A stretch of DNA of 64,000 nucleotides from an uncultured bacterium (GTDB taxonomy: Bacteria; Babelota; Babeliae; Babelales; Vermiphilaceae): the NCBI GenBank assembly GCA_963713925.1, contig OY970212.1, positions 544,001 to 608,000 of the forward strand. Direction: 5' to 3'. Of this stretch, positions 1,137 through 60,062 are shown one piece after another (positions within the stretch are counted from its first letter, which is position 1; each line of letters begins with the position of its first letter). The notes beneath the pieces were generated by a model, which saw only the letters and a list, made by a program, of their open reading frames with translations, was not told where the DNA came from and searched no databases. The position numbers and the translations under genes were made by a program.

Positions 1137-3324
1137 ATGAAGATCCAATCCGGTTTTATGCTTTTGTGCTTGTTTTTCTCCTCAGTATTTTTGGGCGGTT
1201 TCCCGGAAATTAATGATGACACATTTGATGTTCGAAATAATCGTTTTCGAGATAACGATGTGCAAACGATATTTACCGCAGCCGCATATGAAAAGCTGAA
1301 TGAAAATCGGGATGATTATAGAGCGGAAACGTATCTTATGGCCGCATCTGAAAAATTAGATGAATATCGAGATCGAAACGATAACAGTCGCGACAACTCA
1401 TCACAGGAACCACAACAAAACGATTCGCACGAGCGTGATTCATCGGGATCTCGTCATGATCCAAATGAACGTGACAGGCCTTCCGATCATGAGCGATCAA
1501 TGGCCGCTGAAAGTCGACATGAACGTCGAGAGAAGAATTTTGATCAATCGGCACATTATGGTAACCAAAAAGGAGTGAGTGGAGCATCTCAAAGATCAAA
1601 CAACAGATATTACGATCTTTTTACGTTTATTAATCACAGCAAAACGTTTATAGAAGAGTTGACCAATAATGGCCAAACGAAGCGCTGTTTTACGGATAAA
1701 GTTCTTACGCTTACTCATGAAGCAAATTTGATGCTATCCGACCGAGCTCGGTTTCGAAGAGTTTTTTAAAGCAGATATAGAGCGTTACAATAAAAAAGAA
1801 CAATCGCTTCTTTCATGGACGAATAATTTGCTCAATATAGCCGGCGCTATTTATATGGGCGTCCAATTCAGACATCTCAGTGTGCGTATGATACATATTG
1901 CAGTTCTATGCGCGGTAAATTATGATTTGATTGAAAAAGGTGAACTTCGTCCTGTTCCGGACTTGCTCAAGATCGGATATGCAGCTATTGGCAAAACACA
2001 CGAATACACCCTCGACTTTGTCAAAGGAATGGGTGAGAAAGCAGCATCAATAGCGACGGCACCGCATACGTTTATCTGGGAAAAAGCGAAGGGATTTTGG
2101 CATTGCCTTGTCGGAGCGAAAAAGGTGATCGAGTATGCAGAATGGTTTTTTGATGCAAGTTATTGGGTCCAAGTAAAAAGCATGAGAACCGGTGTGGCAA
2201 CGGTTAAGCGCGTCTCGACCCTTATTACAACCAAGATGTCAAAGATGTCTGCTGATGATTGGGACAATTGCGCTAAAGCAACGGCAAAGGGTGCTGGAGG
2301 ATTGGTAACCGATTTCGCAGCAGTGCATTATTCGTGTGCAGGGCTTGCTACAGTATTTTCCAAGATAGGTGCTTTGTTTGGGTTGGAAGAGGTTGCCGAG
2401 GCAGCAGAGATTGTTGAAGAAGCCGCCGAAGTCGCCCAAGAGGCCGTTGAGGTAGCTCAAGAAGCAGCCGGAGCCGCGCAAAGTGCGACAAAAGAGATTC
2501 TCGATTTAGTATTCGATGAAGCATTGGGGGTCTGGGTGCTTCAAAAGCAATGTATAGCTCCGGCAATTGTTAGAGCTACGGAGGTTGTTGCTGAAACGGC
2601 AGAAGTAGCAACGACTACCGTTGCAACCGTAGCGCAAACAACGGAAAAGTTCATGGCGCCGGCAGTTCGTGGATTACAATTTGTTGGTAAGCTGAATGAG
2701 GCAGTCGCCGGAGTTAGTCCTACCGTTGCTGTTGGATCCGCGCCATCAAATCTACCTAAGATCACAACCGCGGTAAGTACGGCGGTAGAAGCGGGGAATG
2801 CGGCGGAGGTTGCTACGCGTTTTTTTGATATCACACAGTATGATCCGTCGATAGGTGACCTACAAAAGATAAGTGATAACTGGGGTTTGATAGAAAAACT
2901 TTCGAATTATCAAGAGGTTTATCAACGAGTCGAGAAATGTGGTCGCATCGGAAATGATAGAGGAACATTGGGGACGGCACGTGGGGCGATGTATGAGCTT
3001 GAAAAAGCTGTTGATTTAGTGAGCAAAGGGGAAGAAGTTGTTAAGCTTAGCGACAAAGTTAAGAAGATGAGTAATGATCTATTAAGAGTAATAAAAACTG
3101 TTGATATAGATATTGTAACCAAAAATAAGTTTATCGAATGCAAAAACATAGATTGGAAGGTTCTTACAGGGGATCGAATTGGGCAAAGAATAGCGGATTT
3201 TAAAGAATTGAAGGATATAGCCCTCCAATATGGAAAAGAGTTTGAATTACATTCAAAAAGAGTTATTCCCGAATGCGTGCAAACATTATTAAAGGAAAAA
3301 GGGATAAAATTTGTTGAAGGATAA
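1137..3324 (+). pseudogene. Signal-peptide polymorphic toxin with C-terminal PD-(D/E)xK (REase-fold) nuclease; frameshifted at about 1738-1745
   Basis: ORF 1137-1769 (signal peptide MKIQSGFMLLCLFFSSVFLG) joins ORF 1828-3324 if one copy of ccga-ccga is removed (MLSELGFEEFF). C-terminus has YE...DIDIVTKNKFIECKN. Immunity-like genes follow. Confidence 0.75.
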
Positions 3325-3326
3325 AC

Positions 3327-3710
3327 ATGAATACATCACCCGCAATACATGCTTTGTTATGGATTGATTATAGCAGGAAAGAAATAGCATCAATTATCAC
3401 AAAAAGTCGTTTTTTGGGTTTTAACTATAGTGTTGAGGGTGAACCAATGAGAGGCCCTCATGTAATTGATCGTGCGATACAACCAAATGTTTGGTTTAAC
3501 ATTAATTTTCAAGATACTTATTTTGACTTATCATTTGTAAAGGACGGGCAAATGCTTTTGGTAATTATGAGTCGACTTGGTCCGAATTGGCAGAAAAAAT
3601 ATGTGGGAAAGTCTGATTATGAGATTGATACTCAACGATACATATATCTTATGATGGACTTAGTAGCCGATTACAAACCAGTTGATCTTAAGTTAGTTCA
3701 AGAATTGTGA
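3327..3710 (+). CDS. Putative cognate immunity protein (paralogue 1)
   Basis: Starts 2 nt after the toxin stop; shares LGF-x-Y, FQDT-x-F, W-x-KKY-x-G and D-x-x-RY motifs with the next three ORFs. Confidence 0.75.
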   Translation: MNTSPAIHALLWIDYSRKEIASIITKSRFLGFNYSVEGEPMRGPHVIDRAIQPNVWFNINFQDTYFDLSFVKDGQMLLVIMSRLGPNWQKKYVGKSDYEIDTQRYIYLMMDLVADYKPVDLKLVQEL

Positions 3711-3723
3711 AGGACTGAAAATT

Positions 3724-4110
3724 ATGGGAATGGTCTATTCCGCAAACGCATATCTTGATTTTGAATACAGTCGAGAGAATGTTCGCACAATTATGCGCAA
3801 AGGTGCGTTAATGGGATTCTTTTATGTTAAAGATGAAAAACCAATGTCTCCCGATGAAGCTGCTGATCATGTCATTAATTTTGATTTGCATTATTGTGAT
3901 GTTTTTTTCCAAGACACCGTATTCGCTCTTTTTTTAAGTGATGGAGAATTCGGTTTTTATGTCTCGATGGCGCTTTTTGGCGGTTGGTGGGAAAAGCGAT
4001 ATCAAGGCCAAAATAAATATGATCACGATATGTATAGATATGGCAGATTGTTGTTAGAACTTATTTCTGATTACAAAATGAATCAATTTAGTATTGCTTT
4101 GGAAGAATGA
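3724..4110 (+). CDS. Putative immunity protein (paralogue 2)
   Basis: YSRENV...MGFFY...FQDTVF...WEKRYQG...DMYRY; paralogous to its neighbours. Confidence 0.72.
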   Translation: MGMVYSANAYLDFEYSRENVRTIMRKGALMGFFYVKDEKPMSPDEAADHVINFDLHYCDVFFQDTVFALFLSDGEFGFYVSMALFGGWWEKRYQGQNKYDHDMYRYGRLLLELISDYKMNQFSIALEE

Positions 4111-4159
4111 AGTTCTTTTATTTTGCGAAGATTGTGCCGCTAGTTGATTTTATAGATGA

Positions 4160-4573
4160 ATGAATTTCATGGGTGTAAGTCAAATAAATGAAATTAACGC
4201 ATTGTTATGGGCATTGTACGATAATGGAGCAGATATACCGTATATCATCAATATAGGAAAAACCTTGGGTTTTAAGTATGAAACAGGTGATTTTAGTTTT
4301 GATGACTTTGTGGGTAAGCGCGTCATTGAGTCCTCGAAGTTCAAAGTTTCATTCGAAGGTGCAGAATTTTTTTTGACATTTAAAAATCAAGAAGGTTTTT
4401 TATTGGTTAGCCTGACTCATTTAACTAATGCAAAACAAAGAACATATTTTGGTAAGCAAAATCCTGAAATCGATTGGCCTTACTATATCAAATTGATGCT
4501 CAATTTGCTTGACAACTACATACCGTTCGAATTTAAAACTGGTCCTATTGAATCGGTGGAGGGAAGGTATTAG
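4160..4573 (+). CDS. Putative immunity protein (paralogue 3)
   Basis: NALLW...LGFKY...EIDWPYYIKLM; closest to paralogue 1. Confidence 0.7.
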   Translation: MNFMGVSQINEINALLWALYDNGADIPYIINIGKTLGFKYETGDFSFDDFVGKRVIESSKFKVSFEGAEFFLTFKNQEGFLLVSLTHLTNAKQRTYFGKQNPEIDWPYYIKLMLNLLDNYIPFEFKTGPIESVEGRY

Positions 4574-4576
4574 CAC

Positions 4577-4972
4577 ATGAGTAAAACATATTTTGTGTCT
4601 TGTGATATTGACCTTGAATTCAAGCGAGAAAACCTTTTACAGTTGATGGAAAAGGGGCTTTCAATGGGTTTTAAATATGCACTTGATTCTCGGATCCTTT
4701 TGTTGGAGGAAAGTGCTGATTTTTTTATTAATTTAGATAAAGATAATTTCGAAGATTTTTTTTCAGTGTTATGTGATGGTTCGCAATTTACCATTCGCAT
4801 AACAAAAAAAGATAGCGGGATGTATATTTCACTTATGACGAATCTTTATTGGGAAAAAAAATACAGACAAGACATGCTTACGTATACCCCGGACATTCAC
4901 AGGTTTTCATATCTTCTACTTGACTGGATTTCCACATATAAGCTTAATGAATTTCATATTGATTTTTGCTAA
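4577..4972 (+). CDS. Putative immunity protein (paralogue 4)
   Basis: DLEFKRENL...MGFKY...WEKKY...DIHRF; closest to paralogue 2. Confidence 0.7.
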   Translation: MSKTYFVSCDIDLEFKRENLLQLMEKGLSMGFKYALDSRILLLEESADFFINLDKDNFEDFFSVLCDGSQFTIRITKKDSGMYISLMTNLYWEKKYRQDMLTYTPDIHRFSYLLLDWISTYKLNEFHIDFC

Positions 4973-4976: not shown

Positions 4977-5033
4977 GAAATTCAATATTCTCAGAGCTGA
5001 ATTATTAAAATTCGTTACAAGGTAAGTATATGA
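4977..5033 (+). pseudogene. Relic of a toxin C-terminal tip
   Basis: Reads EIQYSQS*IIKIRYKVSI*, resembling the end of the 11946-13688 toxin (LEVLNRINGKKIKIRY); its TGA overlaps ATG 5030. Confidence 0.55.
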
Positions 5034-5474
5034 ACGAAATTTGGTCAAAATGGATTCCTTTAGCAGGTATAAAGAGTTATTATTACATAATTTCTGTTTC
5101 GATGCGCAAGGATTTGAGGTTATATTAAAAACTTCTAATAATTCTGATAAAACTATCAGAATTTTTTTCGAAAATTCAGTAGATTCTTCTCGCCGAACCG
5201 ATGAAAGTTATGTGGGTGGTATTGTTGGACCGATGGCTGATAAGTATGGAAGAGAGTTTGCTCAATGGCCATTTTTTAAGATTGAAAATTCAGAATATTT
5301 GAAATGGTTTTTTGACACATCAATTGGTATGGCACAAATAAGAGGATGGAAATTTACTCATTTTTCGATTATGGCTCTTGATTCCATGCTTGACATCATC
5401 GCCCCACAGAGCCGGTAGTTGAGTTTATAGATGAAAATGACGAATCGTCTTCACATCTCGCCGATATCGATTGA
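5030..5474 (+). pseudogene. Frameshifted orphan immunity gene, same family as 11094-11949
   Basis: MNEIWSKWIPLAG (cf. MTESWERWEPVSG) in one frame, WPFFKIENSEYLKW...HFSIMALDSMLDII in a second, EPVVEFI in a third. Confidence 0.75.
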
Positions 5475-7001
5475 AGTAAATACCTCAAACTGTGCAGTTT
5501 TATCTTGCCATGCGTTCGAAGGCAATCCTGCTTTTTCGCTCAACTGCGTCAGCGTTTCCGGTAAATTCCACTTAAATTCTACCGGCACTTCTGGTAAAAA
5601 GACTGCCGATGCAAGCCCGTGGCTTAAGATAATGCCATGTTTGCCGAGAACAATGTTCTTGTAAGAAGTAATCGGATGGGGATCCGATAGAATAGACAGC
5701 TTGAGGCTTAGGTTAGGCAATTCATTTTTGGTGATCGGGTTAAATCGAGTATCATGCAGCGCCGTATCACGCATGACTGTTGCAACGGTTTTATACAATG
5801 GTTCAGGAGTTGTAATGCGTCCGATGCAGCCGCGTAGCTGTTTTCCGCGAGTCGTAACCGTATCGAGTGTTGTAAATGCACCGTGCTTTTGTCTAACCCC
5901 AAAGGAGAGGATGGGGTATAACAGACGGTCATCAATAGCATGTGCAAAGATATTAAAGAGGACATCGTGCGCCTCTTGCCACAACCCGCGTTGTTCTTGT
6001 TGAGTCAATTGTGTCTCAAAAGGCTGTGAAACAAGCTTTTGGGACGTAAATAACATGCCAACATAGCTTACAGAACTTGTCTGATTTTTTTCTTGATTGC
6101 CAGATGTGTCATACGCGATAAGACGAGGCTCTACCGATCCGAATGCATTCAATTCCAATAGCGACAAAAAAATCTCCAGGGGATAATGGCCACAGATGGT
6201 TGCTCCGGTCGATTCCATGAATTTCTCAAATGCTGAGCACGAGCCGTGCTCGATAGTCTGAATTGCTTGTGAATCAAGTGAGCGAATGAAGTGATGAATA
6301 TATTCTTGTTTTACTGGTTTTGTGCGATATTGTTCCGATCGAAGCAGTTGCGGTAGCCCAAATCCAAAACGGCTTCCATAATGAGTAAAATCGCTACTGA
6401 CAATCACAAGCGTACGGTCATCGATGACTGATTTGAGCGCCTGTGCGATAGCATGTGCTTGTGCGCAGGTGAGTTTTCCCACAATCAGCGGGACTATAGT
6501 GGCTTGAGCACAATACGTTTGAATCAGTGGTAGTTGCATTTCAAGCGAATGTTCGATATCAAAAACGGTATCGTTTTTTATAAAAAACGGTTGATTTTCT
6601 AGTTTTTTGATTATTTCTGTATTCACTGGAATATTACTCAAGGGCGTATGATACTGATCAAATGATGGTACGGCAACTCCTTGAAAAGACACCGAATGGT
6701 CAGGCGCTAAAATAATTATTTTCTTGATATCGCTTTTATCAAGGAGACGATACACGCTTGCAGCGACAGTTCCCGAATACCTATATCCTGCGTGTGGAAC
6801 AATAAGCGCTCGAATTGAGCGCGAGTCTACGGTTGCATCGTAAAGCTGAGCTGCTTTATCAGAGAGCTTCGACACTGTTTTTTGCAAGCTTGTTTTTTCG
6901 TTGGGATACCAGTTGCTGTCTAAGTGAGCCTTTTTTATTGTCCCCTGAGCAATAGATATCGCAAAAAGAAGAGAAAAAATGTGCTTCATTCTTAACATCA
7001 T
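5451..7001 (-). CDS. AmmeMemoRadiSam protein B (MEMO1) / protein A (AMMECR1) fusion with signal-peptide-like N-terminus
   Basis: MEMO motifs PHAGYRYSG, EHSLEMQLP, SSDFTHYG, TICG, VSYVG; AMMECR1 motifs LRGCIG, DTRF, GKHG, FLPEV, KAGL. Confidence 0.9.
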   Translation of the reverse strand: MMLRMKHIFSLLFAISIAQGTIKKAHLDSNWYPNEKTSLQKTVSKLSDKAAQLYDATVDSRSIRALIVPHAGYRYSGTVAASVYRLLDKSDIKKIIILAPDHSVSFQGVAVPSFDQYHTPLSNIPVNTEIIKKLENQPFFIKNDTVFDIEHSLEMQLPLIQTYCAQATIVPLIVGKLTCAQAHAIAQALKSVIDDRTLVIVSSDFTHYGSRFGFGLPQLLRSEQYRTKPVKQEYIHHFIRSLDSQAIQTIEHGSCSAFEKFMESTGATICGHYPLEIFLSLLELNAFGSVEPRLIAYDTSGNQEKNQTSSVSYVGMLFTSQKLVSQPFETQLTQQEQRGLWQEAHDVLFNIFAHAIDDRLLYPILSFGVRQKHGAFTTLDTVTTRGKQLRGCIGRITTPEPLYKTVATVMRDTALHDTRFNPITKNELPNLSLKLSILSDPHPITSYKNIVLGKHGIILSHGLASAVFLPEVPVEFKWNLPETLTQLSEKAGLPSNAWQDKTAQFEVFTSIDIGEM

Positions 7002-7516
7002 CAAAAATCTTTCATCATCAAAAATTTTGGATCTTCATCTATCCTCAGCACGCAATACAACAGTGAAGCGAGTCGTATCATAGATGGGCTCTGGATGACT
7101 TCAAATCCCTCCGAGCGATAGAACTGAACAAGTTGCGCAAGTTTTTTTACCCGCTCTTCACCTTCAATTTTTTTGAATTGATGGTCTACAACATCGTAGG
7201 GCCCCGGTTGGATAAAAATTTTTTTGATGCCCGATTGCTGCAGTTCTTGTAATATCCGCGGCAATAAAGAACGCCCATATCCATGATTGCGAAATGAATG
7301 ATGAACATAACCGCTATGCAAAACGCCGATAGGAAGCAGAGGGAATTTCAAGAAATCTGCATATCCGATTTCTGTGCCATCAGTGTCATGTGCAACAAAA
7401 CCGATAGTGTGTACTCCGTAGTAACTTTCTTCGATCTTCTTAATTGTTACGTCTTGGGCATACAAGGACACTATGCTTACAATCAAACTTGCTGCAAGAT
7501 AGGAGAGTAGTTTCAT
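7001..7516 (-). CDS. GNAT-family acetyltransferase with signal peptide
   Basis: Acetyl-CoA motif VHHSFRNHGYGRSLL and FY-x-x-x-GF; hydrophobic N-terminus ending LYA. Confidence 0.8.
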   Translation of the reverse strand: MKLLSYLAASLIVSIVSLYAQDVTIKKIEESYYGVHTIGFVAHDTDGTEIGYADFLKFPLLPIGVLHSGYVHHSFRNHGYGRSLLPRILQELQQSGIKKIFIQPGPYDVVDHQFKKIEGEERVKKLAQLVQFYRSEGFEVIQSPSMIRLASLLYCVLRIDEDPKFLMMKDF

Positions 7517-8371: not shown

Positions 8372-11092
8372 TCACTCATTTTCCACAACTTTCACCATAC
8401 TTCCCTGTGATCCTTTCTCAATGACAAAATGCACCGGGAATTGGTCTTTCATGTTGGGCAGGTGGGAAACAATGATAATTTTTGAGAAATCTTCTTGAAT
8501 TTTGTGAATGGCTTCCATGATATTATTGAGCCCCTCTTCGTCTTGAGAGCCAAAGCCTTCATCGATAATCAATGTTTGCAGTGCAGTGCCTGCTCGCCGT
8601 GCCAGCAGCTTTGAAATGGCAATGCGCAGTGCAAAATCGATGCGGAAAGCCTCGCCGCCGGAGAACATTTCATAGGGGCGAATGCCAACTGAGTCTGAAA
8701 TTTTTATATCAAGTGTTTCTTTTGAACCGCCTTTTTTTAAGTCGCGCAGAGAATCGATAGAGATATGCGATTGGTTGTCTGTGAGCTTTGCAAGTAGGTA
8801 GTTTGCTTCTTGCTCAATTTCAGGAATCACCTCTTCAATCATAAGCGCTTGGATGCCCTCTTTACCGAGCGCGTTGCTCAAAAGTGTGTGATCACTGATC
8901 TCGCGTTCAAGACTTGTCAGTTTTTCTTTACACTCGCCATATTCTTTTTCACTTGCAACTATTTTTGCAATTGTTGCATCGGCGGTGCCTAGTTTTTCAC
9001 GCAGCTGTTCTCGCGCGGATTGGAGTTGCGCACTGTTCGTGTTAATCGTGTTGATGGTTGTAGCGATCTCTTGTAATTGTTGCTCAAGATCTTTCTTTTG
9101 ATCTATTTTTTCCGATAACGCAGTAAGTTGAGCTTTTAATTCTTTTGCTTTTTTGCATACACTGATGCATTCGCGCTTTATCTCATGAGCCGAATCTTTT
9201 TTTGATAGCGCAATTTTGTATGCTTCCAATTGCTCATGAATTTTTGCAAGTTCGGCCAAATGGCTCTTTTGAGCATTGGTAATATGTTCCAGCGAACCGG
9301 TTTCTTTGGTTGCGAGTTCTATGGCACGCGATAATTCTTGCAATTGTGTATTGTTTTTCAGCGATTGTTCACATGCTGTTTCGTACTCTTGCAACTCTTT
9401 TTGTTGAATGCTGACGGCGGTGTGCAGAATAAGCAGTTCTTGGCTCAAGCTTTCATGCTGCTTGTCGAGCATGCTGAGCTGTTGCTCAAGAGCTGCTCGC
9501 TGTTGGCCAAACATCTCATGTCGGCTTCTCAGTTGATAATAAAATTCTTTTCGTTTTTGACGTTCCTGAGCAGTTGTTTCTGCCTCTCCAAGCTCAATTT
9601 TTAGTTGTTTCACAACGGTGCTTAATCGCTTGATCCAATGAACAAGTCGTGCTTTTTGGTCGGAAAATTTTTGTTTTAAAAAGCGACGACGAGCTGCCGA
9701 TAGATTTTGTTCACACAATGGACAACTGGGATCTTCTTCGCCGAGAGACAGGGAATCCTTTTTTTCTAGTTCAAGATATTCTGCTTTGAGCCGTGTGCCG
9801 AGCGTAATAAATTTTTGGCAATATTCTTTCTTTCGTTCAATGTGCTTTTCTTGATCCGTTTCTTGACTCACCGCTTTTTCAAGAGTGGTCAGTTCAAGCG
9901 TTATTTTGGAAAGAGTCGCCACTTTTTCAGCTTGTTCGCGAGTTGCCAATTGACGCGCTTCTTGCAATTTTTGAAGATGCGCCTGCGCAATGGTATATTC
10001 GTTATTCACCTTTGAAGCGGCTTTTCTCTTGGTATCCAATTGAACAAAAAGATCTTCACGCAATTTCGATTCAAGCGTCGTTTTTTTCGCATTTAGATCT
10101 ATGATGGCTTGTTTTTTTTCAAGTAATGTCACCGTTTGCGTGTTCAAAACTGCAAGTTCGGTATTGAGCTCCAACTTTCTTTGCTCTAAATCGTGTGCTG
10201 AGTAAGCCATAGAAACATGAGCTCGCGCTTGATGCCAATTATGGCGCAATTGTTTGACGGTAAGCAGCAGATCATTTTTTTGATTGTTCAAGAGAGCGTG
10301 TGAACGGAGATCGACGGCGAGTGTTTCTGATTCTTTTTGTAATGCATCTTTGCGCGCATACGTTTGTTTGAGCAGCTCTTTGCAGAGCACGTCTTGCTGT
10401 GCGAGTTCTTCAGTTCGTTTTTTTATTTCTTGCAATTCTTTGAGTAAGAGATCTTTATTTTGGATATCGGCTCCGAGTTTTTCTTGCAAAGCGGCCATAT
10501 GCATTTTTGTAATACCCGCCGTCTTGCTTTTTTCAAGAGCTCGCTTTCTTAACGTTTCATACAATTCAAGACCCAAAATGGAAGCAAGAATTTCTTTACG
10601 GTCTTTGGGAGACTTTTGAGAAAATTCGTTTGACTGGCCCTGCTTGAGAAAGGCTGAATTGATGAAGGCTTCATATGAAATGCGAATCACTTTTTCTATG
10701 GTGTCCTGCGTTGCCTTAATCGTTTTGTCAGTGAACGCATGTTCTTGACTCGTTTGATCATCGATAGAACCAAATTCTAAAACACTATATGGCTTGCCAT
10801 AATGATGATGATATTCGCGTTTGATACGATAATGGGTGTCATTGCACATAAAATCAAACGTGATTGTCATGGAATGCTGACCCAGATGAACGAGGCCTTG
10901 ATCAGCCTTGCTTGTCGATCCAGTTTTTCGCGCCTGTCCCCACAGCGCCCAGGTGATTGCATCAAGAAGAGCTGATTTCCCATGGCCATTTTTTCCAGAC
11001 AAACAAATGAGGTTATAGTTTTGAAAATCAATTGTTTGCGTTTCTGGGCCGTAACTTAAGAAGTTTTTGATTTGTATTTTTAAAGGAATCAT
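8372..11092 (-). CDS. sbcC: SbcC/Rad50-like SMC ATPase
   Basis: Walker A GKNGHGKS, Q-loop, coiled coil with CPLC hook, signature FSGGE, Walker B LIIDEGFGSQD, H-loop VSH. Confidence 0.93.
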   Translation of the reverse strand: MIPLKIQIKNFLSYGPETQTIDFQNYNLICLSGKNGHGKSALLDAITWALWGQARKTGSTSKADQGLVHLGQHSMTITFDFMCNDTHYRIKREYHHHYGKPYSVLEFGSIDDQTSQEHAFTDKTIKATQDTIEKVIRISYEAFINSAFLKQGQSNEFSQKSPKDRKEILASILGLELYETLRKRALEKSKTAGITKMHMAALQEKLGADIQNKDLLLKELQEIKKRTEELAQQDVLCKELLKQTYARKDALQKESETLAVDLRSHALLNNQKNDLLLTVKQLRHNWHQARAHVSMAYSAHDLEQRKLELNTELAVLNTQTVTLLEKKQAIIDLNAKKTTLESKLREDLFVQLDTKRKAASKVNNEYTIAQAHLQKLQEARQLATREQAEKVATLSKITLELTTLEKAVSQETDQEKHIERKKEYCQKFITLGTRLKAEYLELEKKDSLSLGEEDPSCPLCEQNLSAARRRFLKQKFSDQKARLVHWIKRLSTVVKQLKIELGEAETTAQERQKRKEFYYQLRSRHEMFGQQRAALEQQLSMLDKQHESLSQELLILHTAVSIQQKELQEYETACEQSLKNNTQLQELSRAIELATKETGSLEHITNAQKSHLAELAKIHEQLEAYKIALSKKDSAHEIKRECISVCKKAKELKAQLTALSEKIDQKKDLEQQLQEIATTINTINTNSAQLQSAREQLREKLGTADATIAKIVASEKEYGECKEKLTSLEREISDHTLLSNALGKEGIQALMIEEVIPEIEQEANYLLAKLTDNQSHISIDSLRDLKKGGSKETLDIKISDSVGIRPYEMFSGGEAFRIDFALRIAISKLLARRAGTALQTLIIDEGFGSQDEEGLNNIMEAIHKIQEDFSKIIIVSHLPNMKDQFPVHFVIEKGSQGSMVKVVENE

Positions 11093-11093: not shown

Positions 11094-11522
11094 TTAAATA
11101 CACGATAAAAAAGTTATTTTTGGTTCGCCGTAGGATATGACATCAATGACAGCTTCCATTGTCATTAAGCAGATGTGTTGTAATGGATTAATAGTCGAAG
11201 ACCAATGCGATGCAATGGTATCTGATTCCTGGTCAATCCATTTGACATATTCAGAATCATTAACTTTAAAAAACGTCCAACTAGCATGAAATTCGGACCC
11301 ATATTTTTCTCGTAATTCTCTAAACAGTTTTACCCTAAATCCTTCGTAGGAAATTCTATAAGCCAACGCTGCTTGTTCAACTTGAAACAATATTTTGTGA
11401 GCATTGTTATCATTATCAATTAATATTATTGAAAGTCCGTCATAATCTTCGACAACTTTTTCTGCATAATAGTTTTTTGCAAGACCCTCAACAGGTTCCC
11501 ATCGTTCCCAAGATTCCGTCAT
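11094..11522 (-). CDS. Putative immunity protein (second copy)
   Basis: Paralogue of 11545-11949 (MTESWERWEPV, WTFFKVN-x-SEY, EPKITFL). Confidence 0.78.
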   Translation of the reverse strand: MTESWERWEPVEGLAKNYYAEKVVEDYDGLSIILIDNDNNAHKILFQVEQAALAYRISYEGFRVKLFRELREKYGSEFHASWTFFKVNDSEYVKWIDQESDTIASHWSSTINPLQHICLMTMEAVIDVISYGEPKITFLSCI

Positions 11523-11544
11523 TGTCTGTTTCCCTTCTGATGCG

Positions 11545-11949
11545 CTATAAAAAAGTTATTTTTGGTTCATCATAAGCAATTATGTCTACAACAGCATCAA
11601 TAGCTATGAGAGAGAAATGAATTAGTGATAAACTTGATGTAATGGTGTATGATTCCTGGTTTAACCATTTGAGATATTCTGAATTATTGACTTTAAAAAA
11701 AGTCCAATGACCATAGAAATCACTTCCGTATTTTTCATCTAGTTCTACAATTAATTTGTGCCGAAATGTTCCATAAACACTTCGATATGAATCAACTAAA
11801 TAATTAAAATCGAGCAAGATTTTGTTACTATCATTATTGTAATCAACTAGAGAAATAGAAAATGCTTCATCTAATTCTTCGATTTTTTCAACGTAATATT
11901 TTTTGGCGAGACCTGATACGGGTTCCCATCGTTCCCAAGATTCTGTCAT
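11545..11949 (-). CDS. Putative cognate immunity protein
   Basis: ATGA overlap with the toxin stop; small acidic protein. Confidence 0.8.
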   Translation of the reverse strand: MTESWERWEPVSGLAKKYYVEKIEELDEAFSISLVDYNNDSNKILLDFNYLVDSYRSVYGTFRHKLIVELDEKYGSDFYGHWTFFKVNNSEYLKWLNQESYTITSSLSLIHFSLIAIDAVVDIIAYDEPKITFL

Positions 11950-13688
11950 TGTTTTGCTCCATATCGGATTTTAATTTTTTTCCCATTTATACGATTAAGA
12001 ACTTCCAAGGTCGGTCTGGTGTCATCGCTTTTACTTCTGACATTAGCAGTTCTTCCGTCAGGAAGATCACCTTTTTTACCAGTAGGAATATCTTTGATAT
12101 TTGTCGGACCCAATGATTCAAAATCCTCTAAGGCTTCCTCAAAACCTCCCGGTTTTTCATATTGTTTTGTCTTGCCCTGGGTTTTTCTGCCCGGCGTCGC
12201 TTCTCTGGCGATTTCTTCTATCGTTTTGGGTTTTTTATCTTTAGGCTTTGATTCGTCAGTGGATTCTTCATCTGAAGGGTCGGATTCATCGGAATCGTCT
12301 TCAGGTTTTGAGGCATCATCGCTATCTTTTTTTTCTTCACCTTCTTTGATTTCGGTGCTTTCAGAAAATAGCCGTAGATCATCTTTATCGTAGCCAACGG
12401 CAACAATTTTCTTAGAAAAATTTTCTACAAGCGCGAATTTACGAGAGTATCTATGTCCATAGAGCGTATGATATTTGTGTTTTGTGGGCAAAGTGCCAGC
12501 TTTTCGTATCATTTCTAGGACATGAGAAGGTGTGATATATTTGTGAACCATGTTATACAGTGCATGAATTCCAAATTTTCTTCCATAAATTTCCTTTTCA
12601 AAACACCCAAATCGGGATTTCAAATCAGATGCTTCCTGGAATATATTTTTTGATTTGAAAAGTTCTTTTTTTAAATCTTCCGGGACCGTTTTCAAATATT
12701 CACGTAATCCCGATAGCTCTTTTTCGTCTTGCATTTGTAAAAAATTGGCTATATATGGATCAGAGCTATCAAAAACGGTTTCCCCTAATCGATGCCACTC
12801 ATAAAAGTTATGTTGAGCATCTGAAAAGGCAAACCGCAGTCTATGTAAATATGCTTTCACGCATCCATCGGTTGTCATTTCTCCCGTTAAGAGATATGGG
12901 CCATAGCGGTATGGCTTTTGTATCATATCTAAGTAATCGTCAGCCTTAATTTGTACACCGCCTATATTCGGTGGTTCCCCGAGTAAAAGATTTCGTTTTG
13001 GGTGGTTTAGATGTTCTAAAGAGTTTTTAAAAGGCTCGAGATAATTATTTGTTTGAGATACAAAATCATCTTGGATCTTTAATGTATGCTTTATAAAATC
13101 ATCTTGATTTTTTGGGTACAATGAAGAGTTTTCTTGATTGCCCCAAATGGCTATCCCCACGACTCCGATAACCCAACTAGCGAGAGTTGGATATATACAT
13201 AGACCACCGTCGCAATTATGTACCATCAATTGTAAATCGCTTATGAAATAGATATGCGGCTCATCAAGAATAATCGCACTAATATCATGTTCTTCTTCGG
13301 CAAATTCAACCTTGCCGCATTGATAGAGGGTTCCCGATCTCGACAAAAAAACAGTGCGATCTGAAATTTGGTTAGCAGGAATAAATTTTTGGGTAGCAGC
13401 ATCAAAAAAAAGTTGATTTTGTACCGTATAGATAAAATGAGAGCCTATGGTAATTTTGAGAGGGTGAGACGCTTTATATGAAACGATTTGTTTTACCGGA
13501 AGAACAATTGGCTCATTCGTGATGAAATCATAACTCAATACCGGGTCGTTGAATGTGATATCGGAAATTGGTACAGAGCCGTTTGGTGTCTCCAACAATG
13601 TTTTCAGACAAAAGCCCGGTAGGATTTCTTTATTGATAAAAATAAGAATGAATAGAAGGCAGTGAAAATTACGGATGCATGTAAACAT
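11946..13688 (-). CDS. Signal-peptide + Hint-domain polymorphic toxin
   Basis: Hint-like block GFCLKTLLETPNG...PHIYFISDLQLMVHN/C; DUF4258-like segment GRKFGIHALYNM...TPSHV; acidic linker; terminal toxin-like tip ...LPDGRTANVR...RPTLEV...KIKIRY. Confidence 0.85.
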   Translation of the reverse strand: MFTCIRNFHCLLFILIFINKEILPGFCLKTLLETPNGSVPISDITFNDPVLSYDFITNEPIVLPVKQIVSYKASHPLKITIGSHFIYTVQNQLFFDAATQKFIPANQISDRTVFLSRSGTLYQCGKVEFAEEEHDISAIILDEPHIYFISDLQLMVHNCDGGLCIYPTLASWVIGVVGIAIWGNQENSSLYPKNQDDFIKHTLKIQDDFVSQTNNYLEPFKNSLEHLNHPKRNLLLGEPPNIGGVQIKADDYLDMIQKPYRYGPYLLTGEMTTDGCVKAYLHRLRFAFSDAQHNFYEWHRLGETVFDSSDPYIANFLQMQDEKELSGLREYLKTVPEDLKKELFKSKNIFQEASDLKSRFGCFEKEIYGRKFGIHALYNMVHKYITPSHVLEMIRKAGTLPTKHKYHTLYGHRYSRKFALVENFSKKIVAVGYDKDDLRLFSESTEIKEGEEKKDSDDASKPEDDSDESDPSDEESTDESKPKDKKPKTIEEIAREATPGRKTQGKTKQYEKPGGFEEALEDFESLGPTNIKDIPTGKKGDLPDGRTANVRSKSDDTRPTLEVLNRINGKKIKIRYGAKQ

Positions 13689-13747: not shown

Positions 13748-13939
13748 TCAAATGTACTTCTTGCAGCTAGTTTTTCGCGCCTGGCCCCAGAGGGCCCAGG
13801 TGATCGCATCAAGGAGCGCCGATTTTCCATGACCATTTTTGCCTGACAAACAAATCAGATTATAATTTTGAAAATCGATTGTTTGTGTCTCAGGGCCATA
13901 GCTTAAAAAATTTTTGATCTGTATTTTTAAAGGAATCAT
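13748..13939 (-). pseudogene. sbcC: Displaced 5' fragment of sbcC (57 codons)
   Basis: First 57 aa identical to SbcC at 11092, then an unrelated tail SCKKYI*. Confidence 0.9.
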
Positions 13940-41575: not shown

Positions 41576-43323
41576 AATTTGCGCGCGTTGCCGATGTATT
41601 TGCAAAAGTGGAATCTGAGTCCGGTCGAACATTAATAACGGGCTATCTGGCAGAACTTTTTCAAGAGGCGTTTCCAGAGGAAATTGGCCATATTATCAAT
41701 TTTTGTTTAGGGCAATTGAATCCTCCCTATATTGGAACTCAATTTAACATTGCAGAAAAAAATATTATGAAAGCGATTTCGCTTTTGACCGGCATTCCCG
41801 AGACTGAGCTGACAATACAACTCAAATCAGTTGGAGATCTAGGCTCAGTTGTTGAGCAACAGAAATGGAAGCAAGAGACAAGCCTTTCAGTCACAGAGGT
41901 CTATGATGCCCTGTTTCAATTGGAATCATTAAAAGGGACCGGCTCGCAAGAAGATAAAGTGCATGCGCTTGAGCGGTTGCTCAGACGGTTAGATCCCCAA
42001 TCGGCCAAGTATGTGGTGCGCATTATTTTGTCAAAGTTACGGCTTGGTGTTTCAGATATGACGCTCATTGATGCGCTTTCTTGGATGCTGGTCGGGAACA
42101 AAACCTATAAGGCAACCATCGAGGATGCGTATAATATTTGTGTTGACCTTGGCTTGATCGCTACAAAAATAAAGCATAAGGGCGTTGAGTCACTTGCTGA
42201 TATGCATATACAATTGGGTATTCCGATTCGTCCGGCAGCGGCAGAAAGAATGCAAAATTCAGAAGAAATTTTCCAGAAATTGGGGTTTTGTGTTGCCGAG
42301 CCAAAGATTGATGGTTTTCGGTTGCAAATTCATGTTGATAGGACACAAAGTAAGCCACAGATTCGTTTTTTCTCTCGCAATTTAATTGATATGTCGCACA
42401 TGTTTCCCGATTTAACGGAAGCGGCTGCACAGTTGCCGGTTTCGAATGCTATTTTGGAAGGCGAGGCAATAGTTTATGACCCGAACACGGGAACCTATCT
42501 TCCGTTCCAAGAAACAGTCAAGCGTAAACGCAAACACGGCGTTGAGGAAGCGGCTGAAGAAATGCCATTGCGGGTGTTCTTGTTTAATATTTTGTATTTA
42601 GATGGAGAGAATCTTCTTGATAAAACTCAGGAAGAAAGAAGAATTTTGCTGGAAAACATTTTCGTAGGTTTTTCAAACCCGGCATTGAGTGTGATTCAAG
42701 AATACAAAATGAACTCGGCTGCTGATATTGAGCGCTATTTTAATGATGCTATTGAACATGGGCTTGAAGGTATCATGGTCAAACGGACTGACTCGATCTA
42801 TCAGCCGGGAAAACGAAATTTTAATTGGATCAAATATAAACGATCAAGCGCCGGCCATTTGCAAGACACCGTAGATGCGGTTATTTTGGGCTACTATGCC
42901 GGAGAAGGGAAACGTTCATCATTTGGCATTGGGGCGTTTTTAGTGGGCATCCTCAATGAAAAACATGACCAATTTGAAACGGTTGCCAAAATTGGAACCG
43001 GTTTGAGCGATGTTCAATGGAAAGAGCTGAAAGAAAAATGTGATGCGCAGAAAGCTGAACATCAGCCAAATAATGTGATTGTAGCAAAAGAATTGGCGCC
43101 CGATGTGTGGACATATCCAGAAATTGTGTGTGTCATTAAAGCCGACGAGATTACGCGTTCGCCATTGCACACGGCAGGTAAAACAACTGAGCACCCGGGG
43201 CTTGCGCTACGGTTTCCGCGCTTTTTACATTACCGAGATGATAAGAATGCATCAGATGCAACGACAGTCAAAGAATTACAACGAATGTTTGCAGTTCAAT
43301 TGTCACAAATGAATAAAGAGTAA
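41572..43323 (+). CDS. ATP-dependent DNA ligase (full-length DBD + NTase + OB type)
   Basis: EPKIDGFR (KxDG), EGIMVK, WIKYK, LALRFPRF...RDDK. Confidence 0.93.
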   Translation: MKFARVADVFAKVESESGRTLITGYLAELFQEAFPEEIGHIINFCLGQLNPPYIGTQFNIAEKNIMKAISLLTGIPETELTIQLKSVGDLGSVVEQQKWKQETSLSVTEVYDALFQLESLKGTGSQEDKVHALERLLRRLDPQSAKYVVRIILSKLRLGVSDMTLIDALSWMLVGNKTYKATIEDAYNICVDLGLIATKIKHKGVESLADMHIQLGIPIRPAAAERMQNSEEIFQKLGFCVAEPKIDGFRLQIHVDRTQSKPQIRFFSRNLIDMSHMFPDLTEAAAQLPVSNAILEGEAIVYDPNTGTYLPFQETVKRKRKHGVEEAAEEMPLRVFLFNILYLDGENLLDKTQEERRILLENIFVGFSNPALSVIQEYKMNSAADIERYFNDAIEHGLEGIMVKRTDSIYQPGKRNFNWIKYKRSSAGHLQDTVDAVILGYYAGEGKRSSFGIGAFLVGILNEKHDQFETVAKIGTGLSDVQWKELKEKCDAQKAEHQPNNVIVAKELAPDVWTYPEIVCVIKADEITRSPLHTAGKTTEHPGLALRFPRFLHYRDDKNASDATTVKELQRMFAVQLSQMNKE

Positions 43324-54071: not shown

Positions 54072-54905
54072 ATGAAAACTCAAGTGAAAACGATAGTAAA
54101 AGCAATATTAGTCGGTATCGGCATGTGTGCGGCTGCATATGGATTCGTTATTTCAGGATTATGGAATCGAGTTGCCATTTCTTCAACACTGGTCTATCCG
54201 ATTTTGGTGTGCGAAAATGCATTGGTCAAGCCGATAAAATCGTTTTTTCAAAGACGTAAAAATGAAAATGAATTGCGCGTTGAGCTTGAGAATATCAGAA
54301 AAGAGCGGAATGCCCTTTCTGCTGAAGTCAGCGGACTCAAGACGCTCATTGCCTATCATCATGATGTTGATGAACTGATCGAATTTAAAGCTCGCTATCT
54401 GACTGAAAAAGCACGAGTATGCCAAATTATTTCAAAGCAGATTGACGCTCAACAACATTCCATTTTGGTTGACGCCGGCAGCCGCAAAGGGGTCAAGGTT
54501 GATATGGTCGCAGTTTATAATAATGCAATTGTTGGACGCGTGAGTGAAGTCTATCCGCTCTATTGCAAAATCGTCTTGGCTACCGATGCACGGTGCAAAA
54601 TCGGAGCATTGGAAATAAATACGAAAGCATGCGGCATTTATTGTGGAAAAAATACGCTGAACGTAGCTCGCCTTGAACAAGTAAGCCATTTATCAAACGT
54701 AGCGCAGAATGATACGATTCTTTCCTCGGGAGAAGGATTGATATTCCCTCGAGGGTTTTCGTTGGGCACCATCAAAACATATTCCAAAAACGGGTTGTTT
54801 TATGATATCGAACTTCAACCATCAGTTGATATTAATGTATTGGAATATTGCTTGCTCATTGATCATGACGGGGCATATTTAAATACGTTACGTAACAATG
54901 CTTAA
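54072..54905 (+). CDS. mreC: Rod shape-determining protein MreC
   Basis: TM + coiled coil + VDAGSRKGV, IVGRV, SSGEGLIFPRG. Confidence 0.85.
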   Translation: MKTQVKTIVKAILVGIGMCAAAYGFVISGLWNRVAISSTLVYPILVCENALVKPIKSFFQRRKNENELRVELENIRKERNALSAEVSGLKTLIAYHHDVDELIEFKARYLTEKARVCQIISKQIDAQQHSILVDAGSRKGVKVDMVAVYNNAIVGRVSEVYPLYCKIVLATDARCKIGALEINTKACGIYCGKNTLNVARLEQVSHLSNVAQNDTILSSGEGLIFPRGFSLGTIKTYSKNGLFYDIELQPSVDINVLEYCLLIDHDGAYLNTLRNNA

Positions 54906-55277
54906 TAGTGCAGCTCCCCCAAGAATAATAGCTCCTGTTGCTGCACCAATTTTCATAGTAGTTATACCGTCTTTGGGGTTATTTGAGTACGCAGTAATAG
55001 GGAGACTAATCCAGAGTCCCACATATGCTCCTCCAAAACCACCCACTGTAGTGGCAAAAATGCCGTTAGCAATCCGATCAGACAGAGTAAGTTTTTCATC
55101 TGAATTTCCATCACGACTGGAGCAATAGAACTTTCTTTGCATATCATTACACTTTTTCATTGCTTGTTGAGATGCGACTTTTCTTACATAACTATTTTGC
55201 ATACGTTGCAACATGGCATGTGAATGGGAAATAGAGCAAAGGGATATCGATAAAAATAAGATCTGCTTGATATTCAT
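54888..55277 (-). CDS. Secreted glycine-zipper protein (paralogue B)
   Basis: N-terminal 35 aa identical to 55286-55810; GGFGGAYVG and GAATGAIILGG helices. Confidence 0.75.
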   Translation of the reverse strand: MNIKQILFLSISLCSISHSHAMLQRMQNSYVRKVASQQAMKKCNDMQRKFYCSSRDGNSDEKLTLSDRIANGIFATTVGGFGGAYVGLWISLPITAYSNNPKDGITTMKIGAATGAIILGGAALLSIVT

Positions 55278-55285
55278 ATACTTCC

Positions 55286-55810
55286 TTATTTTGTTTCAGA
55301 AGAAGGCTTACGAATAAGGTCATCTCTAAAAATAGCTGCTAAGATTGCTGCGGAGGTAGCTGCAGTGGAAACTGCTCCTATAGGTCCAGCTACCAATCCA
55401 GCCGCAGTGAAGGCACCGAGCAACGCGCAGCTGTTTGAAGCCTTAGCTTCGAAGGCATGAAAAGCAAGCTGTTGGTCAAGTGCGCTATCATATTTTTCAT
55501 TCGAAAAATAACTGTACGGAATAGTGGAATTGCGAGCCAGAACGAACCCTAAACCATATCCAATTGCACCACCGGGAATGGCAAAAATAGGTCCTAAAAA
55601 AGATTGAGCAAGGGGTGTTTCAAAAGGTGATAGTTCTTCTGTTTTTTTCGATTGTGTAATATTGGTAGAACACAGTCTTTGTTGGTTAGACAATGCTTTT
55701 TGGAGAGCGACTTTTCTTACATAACTATTTTGCATACGTTGCAACATGGCATGTGAATGAGAAATTGAGCAAAGGGATATCGATAAAAATAAGATCTGCT
55801 TGATATTCAT
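55286..55810 (-). CDS. Secreted glycine-zipper protein (paralogue A)
   Basis: Signal peptide ending SHA; GGAIGYGLG and GAFTAAGLVAGPIGA helices. Confidence 0.75.
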   Translation of the reverse strand: MNIKQILFLSISLCSISHSHAMLQRMQNSYVRKVALQKALSNQQRLCSTNITQSKKTEELSPFETPLAQSFLGPIFAIPGGAIGYGLGFVLARNSTIPYSYFSNEKYDSALDQQLAFHAFEAKASNSCALLGAFTAAGLVAGPIGAVSTAATSAAILAAIFRDDLIRKPSSETK

Positions 55811-56968: not shown

Positions 56969-56990
56969 TCTTGGAGTCTTTGGAATAAAT

Positions 56991-57067: not shown

Positions 57068-57090
57068 TTAGTTCAAAAGTTGATATTTAT

Positions 57091-57294: not shown

Positions 57295-57371
57295 GGGGCT
57301 GTAGCTCAGTTGGTTAGAGCGTCCGCCTGTCACGCGGAAGGTCGCGGGATCGAGGCCCGTCAGCCCCGCCA
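57295..57371 (+). tRNA. tRNA-Asp(GTC)
   Basis: GGGGCTG/CAGCCCC stem, CTGTCAC loop, GCCA; atypical T-loop ATCGAGG. Confidence 0.92.
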
Positions 57372-57575
57372 TACTTCGCCAAGGCTTTGTATGGCAGGCC
57401 ATCCTTAGCAAAAGTATGGACATAATTAAGATTTTAAGGCAATTCAGAAATGAGTTGCCTTTTTTATGTGTTTTATCACGCCATAGCCTTGGCGAAGGCG
57501 GATTGCAATCATTTCCAATCCATGTTATAAACTGAGCAATCAACAGCGTTGAAATATACAAAAAGGAGTTCATCA

Positions 57576-59519
57576 ATGTTTATAACAGTTCTCTTTTCAC
57601 TACTCTTTTATAATTCGCTCTTTTCATACAATCCCGATAATCCTGAAATACCTTTTATTCCTGAAGAACCTGAAAAACCGCTTTACAATCCTCAACATAC
57701 TGATGATATTTATCGTGAATTCGGTATCGGGCAGTATGGTAATCGAAGAAAGTGGTTGAATCTTAATTGGGTAAGTAAAGATTCAGCTCTTTTTGAACGG
57801 CATAGAGAATGTAAGAATTGGTCACAAAAAGAATATGTTGTGGCAATAATTCATCAATGTTGTAATGAAGTTTCATTCCGAGATGATGATAGTGCTTCTC
57901 TCAACGGATACAATCTTTTTTACTCTGACGGTAGAAGACATTTTTATCTTCACCGTAATGATGAAGATCAGATTTTGAATCAAGCCGATTTGTATGAGTA
58001 TCAAGAATTTAGAAATATGGCGAGCTTTTTGGCCGGTTATAAAAATAAAATCCGCCAATTGTATTCGCTCATTCAATCGAATCAAAATGTACGAAATCAA
58101 TTGCGTCAGAATGCCATACGAGCAATTGAACAGCAGTATGAGGCTGTTCAACAACAAGAAGCCGCACGAGAGAAAGCTATAAGAGATTGGCAAGAGCAAG
58201 AAGCGCGCATAGAACAACAAGAGGTGGCTGCCAAAAGATTGCGTGAAGAACAAGAAGCATTCAGAAAACTTGGAGCTAAACGAACTGAAATCAGAAACAC
58301 TTTTAACGACCACTTAGCAGTTATCAAAAGTGAATCACAATCGTGGAATGATCTATCTGATATCACTCGTGAGTATAGTTTGTCATACGAACATCTTGAT
58401 AAACGAAACTCCGCGCTTGAAGCGATGAATAATGTAGGCGCAGTCTATACACAATCAAATTATGAGTTGAGTACTCCCATCGGTGGGATAATCAGTGAGT
58501 TTAATTATAATCCGAACACATTCACAACCAATTATGGCAATCAACTGCAACAGGTGGTTCATACAGAATGTATCGATATTTTAGGGCGTACAGCACAGTT
58601 GAATTTGGATGATTGCTTGTATGGTTACAGAGGGGATTTTGTTGATTGTATTGATGCGTCACGAGAATTTAATCAACTCGGACTAACTCACAAATCAACG
58701 GCAATTAATGATTTTTGTTGGACTATGCTTGATATCGGACAGGCAATGGGTAAAGGCGCGTGCCTCGGTGTATATTATGCGGCATATGATTTGGCGACTC
58801 ATCCCTTTCAAACGGGTCTTTGTCTTCTTGCCGGACAATATGTGTTGGCGTATCAAGCATGCAAGATTGCTTATGCGGTGGCTGATATTGCGATTACCTC
58901 ATGTTATGACAAAAGAACTGCTTATGAAAAGCTCGATTCCTATTTAGCGCCCGTTGATGCGTTGTTGACGCAATTTGAAAAAGGGGTTTCGGCAGCTCAG
59001 ATTGCTGGAACCGCAACGCAAGTAGCTGTTGGATACTATGCTCAGGGCAGGATGCTCAAAGGATTGAATTCTATTTATAGCAAGGCTCGAGTCAAGGCAG
59101 TTGATTTTATCAAGAGGTATCCACAAGCAGAACCGGAGCTATTTTTGACAACGCCTGAAGGAATGTTGTTGAAAAGTTCGGTTAATGAAGGTGGACATCA
59201 TTTTCCGCAACCTAATTCAGGTGCGGGAACATCGAAACCGAATTTCCTTGAAGAAGCTTTAAATAGAATAGATGTTAATAAAATTCGACATATTTTCAAC
59301 AAATCGGAACACAATTTGGCACCTCTTGTGAAAAAATTAGGTGGAAATGAAAACGTTATCAAAGAAGTTCTTCTGGCGCTTGAGGGAAAAATTCCGCAAA
59401 GCGGATTGTTTAAAGAGATTCCCGTTTCAGTGGGAGGATATATCGTTCATGTAAGGGGCATGGTTATAGATGGAATTCCTCGTATTGGAACACTTTTTAT
59501 AAAACCGGAGAATGTTTAA
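57576..59519 (+). CDS. Signal-peptide polymorphic toxin
   Basis: RBS aggag; signal peptide; coiled coil; helical core resembling the 1137-3324 protein; toxin-like tip HIFNKSEHNL...VRGMVIDGIPRIGTLF; abutting small downstream gene. Confidence 0.75.
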   Translation: MFITVLFSLLFYNSLFSYNPDNPEIPFIPEEPEKPLYNPQHTDDIYREFGIGQYGNRRKWLNLNWVSKDSALFERHRECKNWSQKEYVVAIIHQCCNEVSFRDDDSASLNGYNLFYSDGRRHFYLHRNDEDQILNQADLYEYQEFRNMASFLAGYKNKIRQLYSLIQSNQNVRNQLRQNAIRAIEQQYEAVQQQEAAREKAIRDWQEQEARIEQQEVAAKRLREEQEAFRKLGAKRTEIRNTFNDHLAVIKSESQSWNDLSDITREYSLSYEHLDKRNSALEAMNNVGAVYTQSNYELSTPIGGIISEFNYNPNTFTTNYGNQLQQVVHTECIDILGRTAQLNLDDCLYGYRGDFVDCIDASREFNQLGLTHKSTAINDFCWTMLDIGQAMGKGACLGVYYAAYDLATHPFQTGLCLLAGQYVLAYQACKIAYAVADIAITSCYDKRTAYEKLDSYLAPVDALLTQFEKGVSAAQIAGTATQVAVGYYAQGRMLKGLNSIYSKARVKAVDFIKRYPQAEPELFLTTPEGMLLKSSVNEGGHHFPQPNSGAGTSKPNFLEEALNRIDVNKIRHIFNKSEHNLAPLVKKLGGNENVIKEVLLALEGKIPQSGLFKEIPVSVGGYIVHVRGMVIDGIPRIGTLFIKPENV

Positions 59520-60062
59520 ATGTGGAAACAGCAGCTTAGGAAACTTGAACAAAATAAAAAATGGGATGAGGGTATTTCTCTGCTTCAAGATGTTCTTGCG
59601 AAAAATCAGAATGATCTTGATGCATATATATGCCTGAATTATTTACTTATTAACTTGTTGATAGAAGAGGATTTTGATGACTCTAAACATGATTTTTATG
59701 CTCGGACGGCAAAGCAAGCCTTTGTCGATTCCTTCCAAAAATTTCATGATAATGCAGAATATTTATTTTTTACTGCAATTACCTGTTATATAGCGGAATA
59801 TTATTATGATCTTGATTTTTCACAAGTTCAAGCGATGATTCGAAGAGCGGTAGAGCTTGACCCTGAAAATATTTTGTATAAATGGGGCTATTATTTATAT
59901 TTACATCAAAACAATCCGGAGCACGCTAAAAAAGGTCTCCCGTATGCACATATTATACTTGATAAGCATTCTCGAGAGCATAAGTATCTGGAATCAAAGG
60001 GCGCAATAGGATTTTATATTCTCGATATTATGCAAAACTCTACGAAAGAGCTTTCCAATTAA
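59520..60062 (+). CDS. Putative immunity protein (helical/TPR-like)
   Basis: ATG immediately after the toxin TAA; RAVELDPEN TPR-like motif. Confidence 0.68.
   Translation: MWKQQLRKLEQNKKWDEGISLLQDVLAKNQNDLDAYICLNYLLINLLIEEDFDDSKHDFYARTAKQAFVDSFQKFHDNAEYLFFTAITCYIAEYYYDLDFSQVQAMIRRAVELDPENILYKWGYYLYLHQNNPEHAKKGLPYAHIILDKHSREHKYLESKGAIGFYILDIMQNSTKELSN

Follow-up and report, generated by a model that had tools for sequence, protein, structure and literature searches.

A predicted polymorphic toxin-immunity system with at least two scaffolds and one pool of tip cassettes in a genome most likely of the Babeliales

Results and discussion

Three loci in a 64,000-nucleotide (nt) stretch of bacterial DNA (G000:C1:544001-608000, hereafter the window) encode large toxin-like proteins with a variable C-terminal tip, each followed by small partner genes (Table 1). 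We consider it probable that they represent a polymorphic toxin-immunity system built on at least two scaffolds and one cassette pool, the toxins likely being Sec-exported nucleases aimed at bacterial rivals that share the protist cell and the partners being predicted to protect the producer. At the level of sequence comparison, the modular architecture, the exchange of tips and the linkage of tip to partner are established. The source genome (G000; a single 1.32 Mb contig, 40.8% GC, 95.75% complete) belongs most likely to the Babeliales (Dependentiae/Babelota), as the best of 80 kept matches to its GAPDH comes from Ca. Babeliales (54%, E 5e-120; next best about 1e-100), and the sections cited here from the literature on Dependentiae make a protist-parasite lifestyle likely (PMC4378268, PMC6561590). 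Its inventory comprises 15 toxin genes, namely nine with a conserved helical core, five in which a Hint domain comes first and locus 1, in addition to one orphan tip at G000:10.5 kb.

Tips and partner genes as cassettes

An initial annotation of the window had described unrelated toxin tips, tightly coupled small downstream genes and none of the usual trafficking domains, and these observations were borne out. The three tips are mutually unrelated (best blastp E 5-7), and the downstream genes lie on the same strand at gaps of 2, -4 and 0 nt for loci 1, 2 and 3. Searches with Pfam and NCBIfam returned zero family matches for the three window toxins, and thus no RHS, VgrG, PAAR, LXG, WXG or haemagglutinin domain. 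The annotation had also named the pattern expected of such a family, a conserved core carrying many tips, each with its own small gene, and this is what was found, with 31 tip clusters among the 131 tailed proteins of 150 listed.

Tip-partner linkage was scored on 70 toxins, consisting of 68 non-redundant core genes (closed 3' end, tail of >=60 amino acids (aa)) plus loci 1 and 2; the set was drawn from fetched loci, a subset of the matches, with open-ended, short-tailed and duplicate-tip genes excluded. These sort into 22 tip and 29 partner clusters. Every one of the 70 is followed by a same-strand open reading frame (ORF), 68 of them within 30 nt, and a gene of 70-200 aa within 30 nt was found behind 57/70 toxins versus 66/488 long ORFs of G000. 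Where two toxins had the same tip, their partner families coincided in 105 of 150 pairs; where the tips differed, they did so in 3 of 2265. None of 1000 permutations reached this linkage; kinship among the genomes inflates this statistic, yet EndoU-like and locus 1-type tips cross several family groups.

Known toxin domains exceeded the Pfam cut-off at the tips of 12 of the 56 relatives scanned (EndoU 2, Ntox21 3, Ntox17 2, Ntox35 3, Cytotoxic 1, Ribonuclease 1), and the tip types carried by the core include EndoU, Ntox17, Ntox21, Ntox35, colicin E3 and barnase. At one locus a known pairing was recovered, in which an Ntox21-cluster tip is accompanied by CdiI_N (E 5e-24). The locus 2 tip is C-terminal in 70/70 homologues, among them MafB, LXG and RHS toxins, with 46% identity to gonococcal (Neisseria) MafB and 57% to one LXG toxin; named homologues include Ca. 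Babeliaceae, TM6 and Dependentiae. Its AlphaFold model is confident (pLDDT 94) and gave no decisive fold match. Within G000, three Hint-type genes and two of the core type carry this tip, and tips therefore swap between scaffolds. Its partner family is present in 24/24 other loci carrying the tip, with no Pfam match common to more than one of 39 members and none significant in the PDB.

The annotation had further proposed a single lineage-specific delivery domain for the three loci, which does not hold: locus 3 has the helical core, locus 2 lacks it and has a Hint domain instead, and the middle of locus 1 is without homologues. What the three loci have in common, judging from their sequences, is a shared pool of tip and partner-gene cassettes.

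Table 1. Features of the three loci, in window coordinates
Feature	Coordinates	Strand	Remarks
Locus 1 toxin, first piece	1137..1769	+	Hydrophobic N-terminus, low-complexity N-terminal region; stop at 1767-1769
Locus 1 toxin, second piece, other frame	1732..3324	+	Helical middle, Ala/Glu/Val-rich linker, tip
Locus 1 tip, predicted PD-(D/E)xK (restriction-endonuclease-like) nuclease	2872..3324	+	Invariant E, D, ExK
Four paralogous candidate immunity genes	3327..4972 (3327-3710, 3724-4110, 4160-4573, 4577-4972)	+	
Orphan candidate immunity gene, locus 2 type	5029..5418	+	Split over two frames near 5090-5105
Two paralogous candidate immunity genes, locus 2	11094..11949 (11545-11949, 11094-11522)	-	55% identical
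Locus 2 toxin, 580 aa	11946..13688	-	Hydrophobic N-terminus, Hint, hydrophobic segment, middle, acidic linker, tip
Locus 2 tip, unnamed polymorphic toxin domain	11946..12233	-	Invariant R, S, T, E, R, Y
Hint domain (BIL/PT-HINT-like)	13209..13616	-	Right behind signal-like stretch; Gly replaces N-terminal Cys; His-Asn kept
171-nt copy of sbcC 5' end, upstream of locus 2	13769..13939	-	87% identical to 10922-11092
Locus 3 toxin	57549..59519	+	656 aa from TTG; 647 aa from ATG at 57576
Conserved helical core, family-defining	58458..59189	+	YGNQLQQxxHxE ... GxxxG...HP ... TPEG; alignment A1
Locus 3 tip, predicted BECR-fold RNase, Ntox35-like	59241..59519	+	
Candidate immunity gene, locus 3, TPR-like	59520..60062	+	Gap 0; TPR_14 slightly below cut-off

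The helical core of locus 3

The phylum sample consisted of 261 genomes, all within one order, of which 189 were rated good-quality. In addition to the nine copies in G000, the core was detected in 113/261 of these genomes (82/189 of good quality) and in 977 protein clusters at 50% identity, and its 250 residues are kept across 16 of the 21 family groups of the sample. Among 301 non-phylum genomes the sole match to the core profile was a CdiA-like toxin (L240:1-2136), where it lies just past the VENN motif (E 4.7e-4). The core has no match in Pfam, NCBIfam or the PDB, and its model, all-helical with a low-confidence hairpin, gave no specific fold match. The core is largely lineage-restricted and is an unnamed, putative delivery domain.

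The closest paralogue of locus 3 (G000:839915) is 58% identical over residues 5-543 and ends in another tip, while the locus 3 partner family also stands behind the same tip in four other loci (L002, L014, L202, L010). Tandem arrangements occur, with a pair of core toxins at G000:C1:1047600-1055500 (-) having one tip type and related partner genes behind each, and tandem core-toxin arrays in relatives G013, G041 and G091.

Locus 3 has a tRNA cluster on one side and a serine recombinase on the other. The latter, a large protein with resolvase, recombinase and zinc-ribbon domains, is encoded in the segment 60059-63449 and is convergent with the locus 3 partner gene; small uncharacterised ORFs come after it. 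The segment resembles an integrated element beside the tRNA-Val/Asn/Asp cluster, and no att duplicate was found. Both locus 3 and its closest paralogue begin 130-180 nt past a tRNA gene (window 57295-57549; G000:C1:839915-840148), one Hint toxin lies 546 nt from tRNA-Arg, and the remaining 12 toxin genes are more than 8 kb from any tRNA.

The Hint-first scaffold of locus 2

PT-HINT domains usually stand right before the toxin domain, as the Pfam name also implies. The locus 2 domain has the same fold by profile as PT-HINT/BIL (PF07591), with alignment A2 of the Hint domains matching PDB 2lwy at E 2.7e-23, and it has the C-terminal His-Asn. It differs from PT-HINT in that Hint here lies directly behind a signal-like stretch and 69-364 residues ahead of the tip, starts with Gly and has a hydrophobic segment after it. 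The PT-HINT profile (E<=0.1) recognised 12/12 members, with locus 2 itself at just 0.061. Across Hint-first proteins, Gly occupies position 1 in 39/46, His-Asn is present in 58/61 and a hydrophobic segment lies behind the domain in 56/58. A splicing intein was considered for locus 2 and ruled out by the leading Gly and by the residue following His-Asn, which is S, T or C in just 7/58 (Cys in locus 2 itself).

A full-scaffold homologue of locus 2 (L167) is 29% identical over 460 aa and has a different tip. Hybrids with an N-terminal Hint, the helical core and then a tip were observed in L017 and L024 (G012) and in P0015 and P0092, and the two scaffolds can therefore combine. The middle of locus 2 may hold a second, internal RelE-like domain: residues 375-450 (about 12330-12570, -) form a segment reading 'GIHALYNM...ITPSHVLEMI', the counterpart of which in L168 weakly matches DUF4258 (E 0.006). 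The locus 2 cassette as a whole sits between both copies of the sbcC 5' end, sbcC being assigned by Pfam.

Locus 1 and its candidate immunity array

The annotation had presented each toxin as one ORF; those of loci 2 and 3 are real, but its ORF 1137-3324 is divided between two frames (Table 1), and the peptide quoted from it as core sequence ('LMLSELG...NKKEQSLL') arises only by joining them. A short T run lies ahead of the first stop. Because the reads give no coverage at the frame break, assembly error and decay are both possible: either the gene has decayed while its immunity array was kept, or the break was introduced during assembly. Three split genes occur among the G000 systems, the other two being the orphan partner 5029-5418 plus a Hint toxin (G000:1206.0-1207.2 kb).

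A weak likeness between locus 1 and the core of locus 3 had been proposed, together with a hidden Markov model (HMM) search to check it. The blastp E value is 3.2, hence not significant; a core HMM of 35 sequences gave no match to locus 1, one of 50 sequences gave 3.0 bits (E 44) and a half-core HMM gave 2.7 bits. The hhalign score of 16.2 between locus 1 and the core was matched by 3/150 shuffles and 2/150 random genome segments, with the reversed sequence scoring 15.1. Two observations weakly favour the likeness, in that the low-scoring alignments keep the register of the core's second half and that the ESM Atlas returned an identical five clusters for the locus 1 middle and the core (0.84-0.91, a comparison with no control). 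Residues 1-240 of the second piece had a self-match alone among 4221 candidates. Locus 1 is nonetheless linked to the core family by its N-terminal piece, linker, tip and partner genes: residues 68-206 of the first piece match core-family paralogue G000:128674 (33%, E 9e-14), to which the linker is 39% identical over 74 aa. Locus 1 may be a very diverged core member or a recombinant.

The locus 1 tip was found in 15/201 genomes of the order, with E, D and ExK invariant in 9/9 aligned tips of its type; the reading of these residues as a PD-(D/E)xK motif is based on the table of Zhang 2012 (PMC3482391). The tip had no Pfam match, and its best PDB profile match was at E 0.26. Tips of this type also occur on core-bearing L112 and L163 and, in more divergent form, on the locus 2 scaffold (L167).

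The four partner paralogues of locus 1 share 24-35% identity among significant pairs. All four match an HMM built from the same-tip partners of 7 other loci (E 1e-15 to 8e-8), which matches nothing else in G000. The orphan behind them was recovered as two tblastn pieces and is 57% identical to a gene at G000:1238.1 kb. A 25-nt direct repeat (92%; 4136-4160 and 5411-5435) at the ends of two genes of the array is a possible recombination scar. Directly convergent with the array is a Memo-AMMECR1 fusion with a signal-like N-terminus (5451-7004, -).

Export and comparison with known systems

N-termini were assessed by the 9-residue Kyte-Doolittle maximum, which is 2.6, 3.7 and 2.7 for loci 1, 2 and 3; 15/15 G000 toxin genes have a hydrophobic N-terminal stretch by this crude test, which 299/488 long ORFs of the genome also pass. 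Export-related matches in G000 consist of two secretins, two T2SS-F genes and two Omp85 proteins. VipB, the sheath of type VI secretion systems (T6SS), had no match in this 95.75% complete genome (control positive in E. coli), and TpsB/CdiB (PF03865) had none in G000 nor in any control genome, leaving that search uninformative. In the cited sections, a type II system is reported as the only secretion system of Babela (PMC4378268), and Chromulinavorax is described as budding vesicles and secreting nucleases and proteases with a presumed role in host breakdown (PMC6561590).

The system would work like MafB; its class is that of a signal peptide plus a lineage-specific domain (PMC3482391), here with new scaffolds. 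As far as the cited sections describe them, MafB/MafI systems of Neisseria likewise have a signal peptide, a lineage-restricted domain, no repeats, a variable tip, an adjacent immunity gene and several loci per genome (PMC4287609, PMC3482391), and gonococcal MafB carries the locus 2 tip. In contrast to MafB, the MafB-N domain (DUF1020, PF06255) had no match in the genes studied here, the best G000 score being 11 bits at an unrelated site versus a cut-off of 25 that no control genome reached, and the ESM Atlas lead to MafB scored only 0.84-0.87. The core here also lies mid-protein, directly before the tip and behind a variable N-terminal region, and the genes are mostly full-length at dispersed loci, with one orphan tip seen in G000. 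Upstream of the window toxins are a nifU-like gene, the sbcC fragment and tRNAs.

The Microscilla-N toxins and the Amoebophilus APD1/APD2 proteins (PMC3482391) are similar in having lineage-specific domains, signal peptides and polymorphic C-termini, and Amoebophilus is also an amoeba symbiont. Compared by description, APD1/APD2 come after a lipobox and are interpreted as acting on the host, whereas here each gene has a co-varying partner, the tips are of interbacterial type and the family is phylum-wide rather than confined to one species. Other systems are further removed. CdiA/CdiI (PDB 6cp9, 6cp8, 8ey4) has haemagglutinin repeats and PT-VENN, unmatched by Pfam in the window toxins or 56 relatives, and the proteins here are about 600 aa. 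In the same proteins there is no RHS, VgrG or PAAR of T6SS/RHS effectors, consistent with the VipB result, and no LXG/WXG N-terminus of the type VII secretion system (T7SS). PT-TG (PF14449) had 0 matches in G000, with the control above cut-off in just 1/14. Ca. Bodocaedibacter vickermanii, as characterised in the cited sections of PMC8163844, is likewise an intracellular bacterium with a small genome, a protist host and toxin-immunity loci; it differs in being an alphaproteobacterium that has a T6SS and carries orphan modules in three islands, in contrast to the 15 dispersed genes of G000 on other scaffolds.

Proposed function and rival readings

The mechanism we propose would begin with Sec export of the toxins, suggested by their N-termini, and passage through the outer membrane via the secretin/type II system or vesicles. 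In the Hint form, predicted self-cleavage at His-Asn would expose the hydrophobic helix for membrane entry; in the core form, this role is predicted to fall to the Gly-rich helical hairpin. In the target cytoplasm, the predicted activity of the tip is cleavage of DNA for locus 1 and of RNA for locus 3, and probably for locus 2 as well. The partner proteins, predicted to be cytoplasmic, would bind the tip, and additional, diverged copies would protect against tips that other strains carry.

Locus 1 has 4+1 partner genes and five similar small genes lie at G000:174-176 kb; such immunity arrays and orphans exceed the needs of self-protection, and they point to bacterial rivals rather than the host as the target. 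The same architecture could instead serve mainly against the protist host, attacking RNA and DNA in its cytoplasm or mitochondria so as to free nutrients or lyse the cell, with the partners guarding the producer before export. This would suit Dependentiae as obligate intracellular parasites, and the nucleases, proteases and vesicles of Chromulinavorax (PMC6561590, in the sections cited), the conserved N-termini and variable host-directed C-termini of the Amoebophilus APD effectors (PMC3482391) and the many tips maintained in parallel at dispersed loci. We regard it as unlikely, since divergent and orphan partner arrays are explicable only as protection from toxins arriving from other strains, the tips that could be recognised belong to interbacterial systems and the 56 scanned relatives contain no ankyrin or ubiquitin-system domain.

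Very unlikely, in our judgement, is a role in addiction or defence, in which toxin released into the shared cell would make the host dependent or block giant viruses or other symbionts. An addiction role has been put forward as a hypothesis for the Bodo endosymbiont's polymorphic toxins (PMC8163844), and in amoebae Babelota are found together with giant viruses and with other symbionts (PMC12644861), both according to the sections cited. Addiction needs an exported antidote, but a hydrophobic N-terminus was found in just 10/70 partner genes, leaving 60/70 without one, and cultured Dependentiae are described in the cited sections as lytic pathogens or parasites (PMC4378268, PMC6561590). Least probable of all are selfish mobile cassettes of toxin and antitoxin that act within the producer and have incidental N-terminal parts, which the sbcC copies flanking locus 2, the tRNA cluster and recombinase around locus 3 and the three split genes would favour, and against which stand the hydrophobic start of all 15 toxin genes, the conservation of the core across family groups and the exchange of tips rather than copying of whole cassettes.

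Competition between bacteria within a shared host cell, the reading we prefer, would fit the likely lineage. More tentatively, the family might amount to a phylum-wide interbacterial weapon operating without a type V secretion system, T6SS or T7SS, in which Sec-exported nucleases would bring their own entry module (the helical core, or Hint as a self-removing cap over a hydrophobic helix) and draw tips from the pool of MafB, contact-dependent inhibition (CDI), LXG and RHS toxins.

Other features of the window

Two further features of the window lie apart from the three loci. A tandem pair of secreted-looking genes (54888-55810, -) shares nearly identical first 36 residues and has differing C-termini, with no Pfam match, and an ATP-dependent DNA ligase of the archaeal/eukaryotic dnl1 type at 41572-43323 scores above the NCBIfam cut-off.

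Implications

In the open-access literature searched, no description was found of the core family, nor of polymorphic toxins in Babeliales/Dependentiae. A 2025 survey, in the sections cited, calls Babelota devoid of toxin-antitoxin systems on the basis of a screen that covered classical families (PMC12644861). The system adds a putative delivery domain without a name and an unusual layout in which Hint comes first, along with many tip and immunity families without Pfam models, including a tip in common with gonococcal MafB. If the proposed function is true, a genome-reduced, obligately intracellular phylum would possess a large interbacterial arsenal, with 15 genes in 1.3 Mb, and competition between co-infecting parasites inside one protist cell would become testable.

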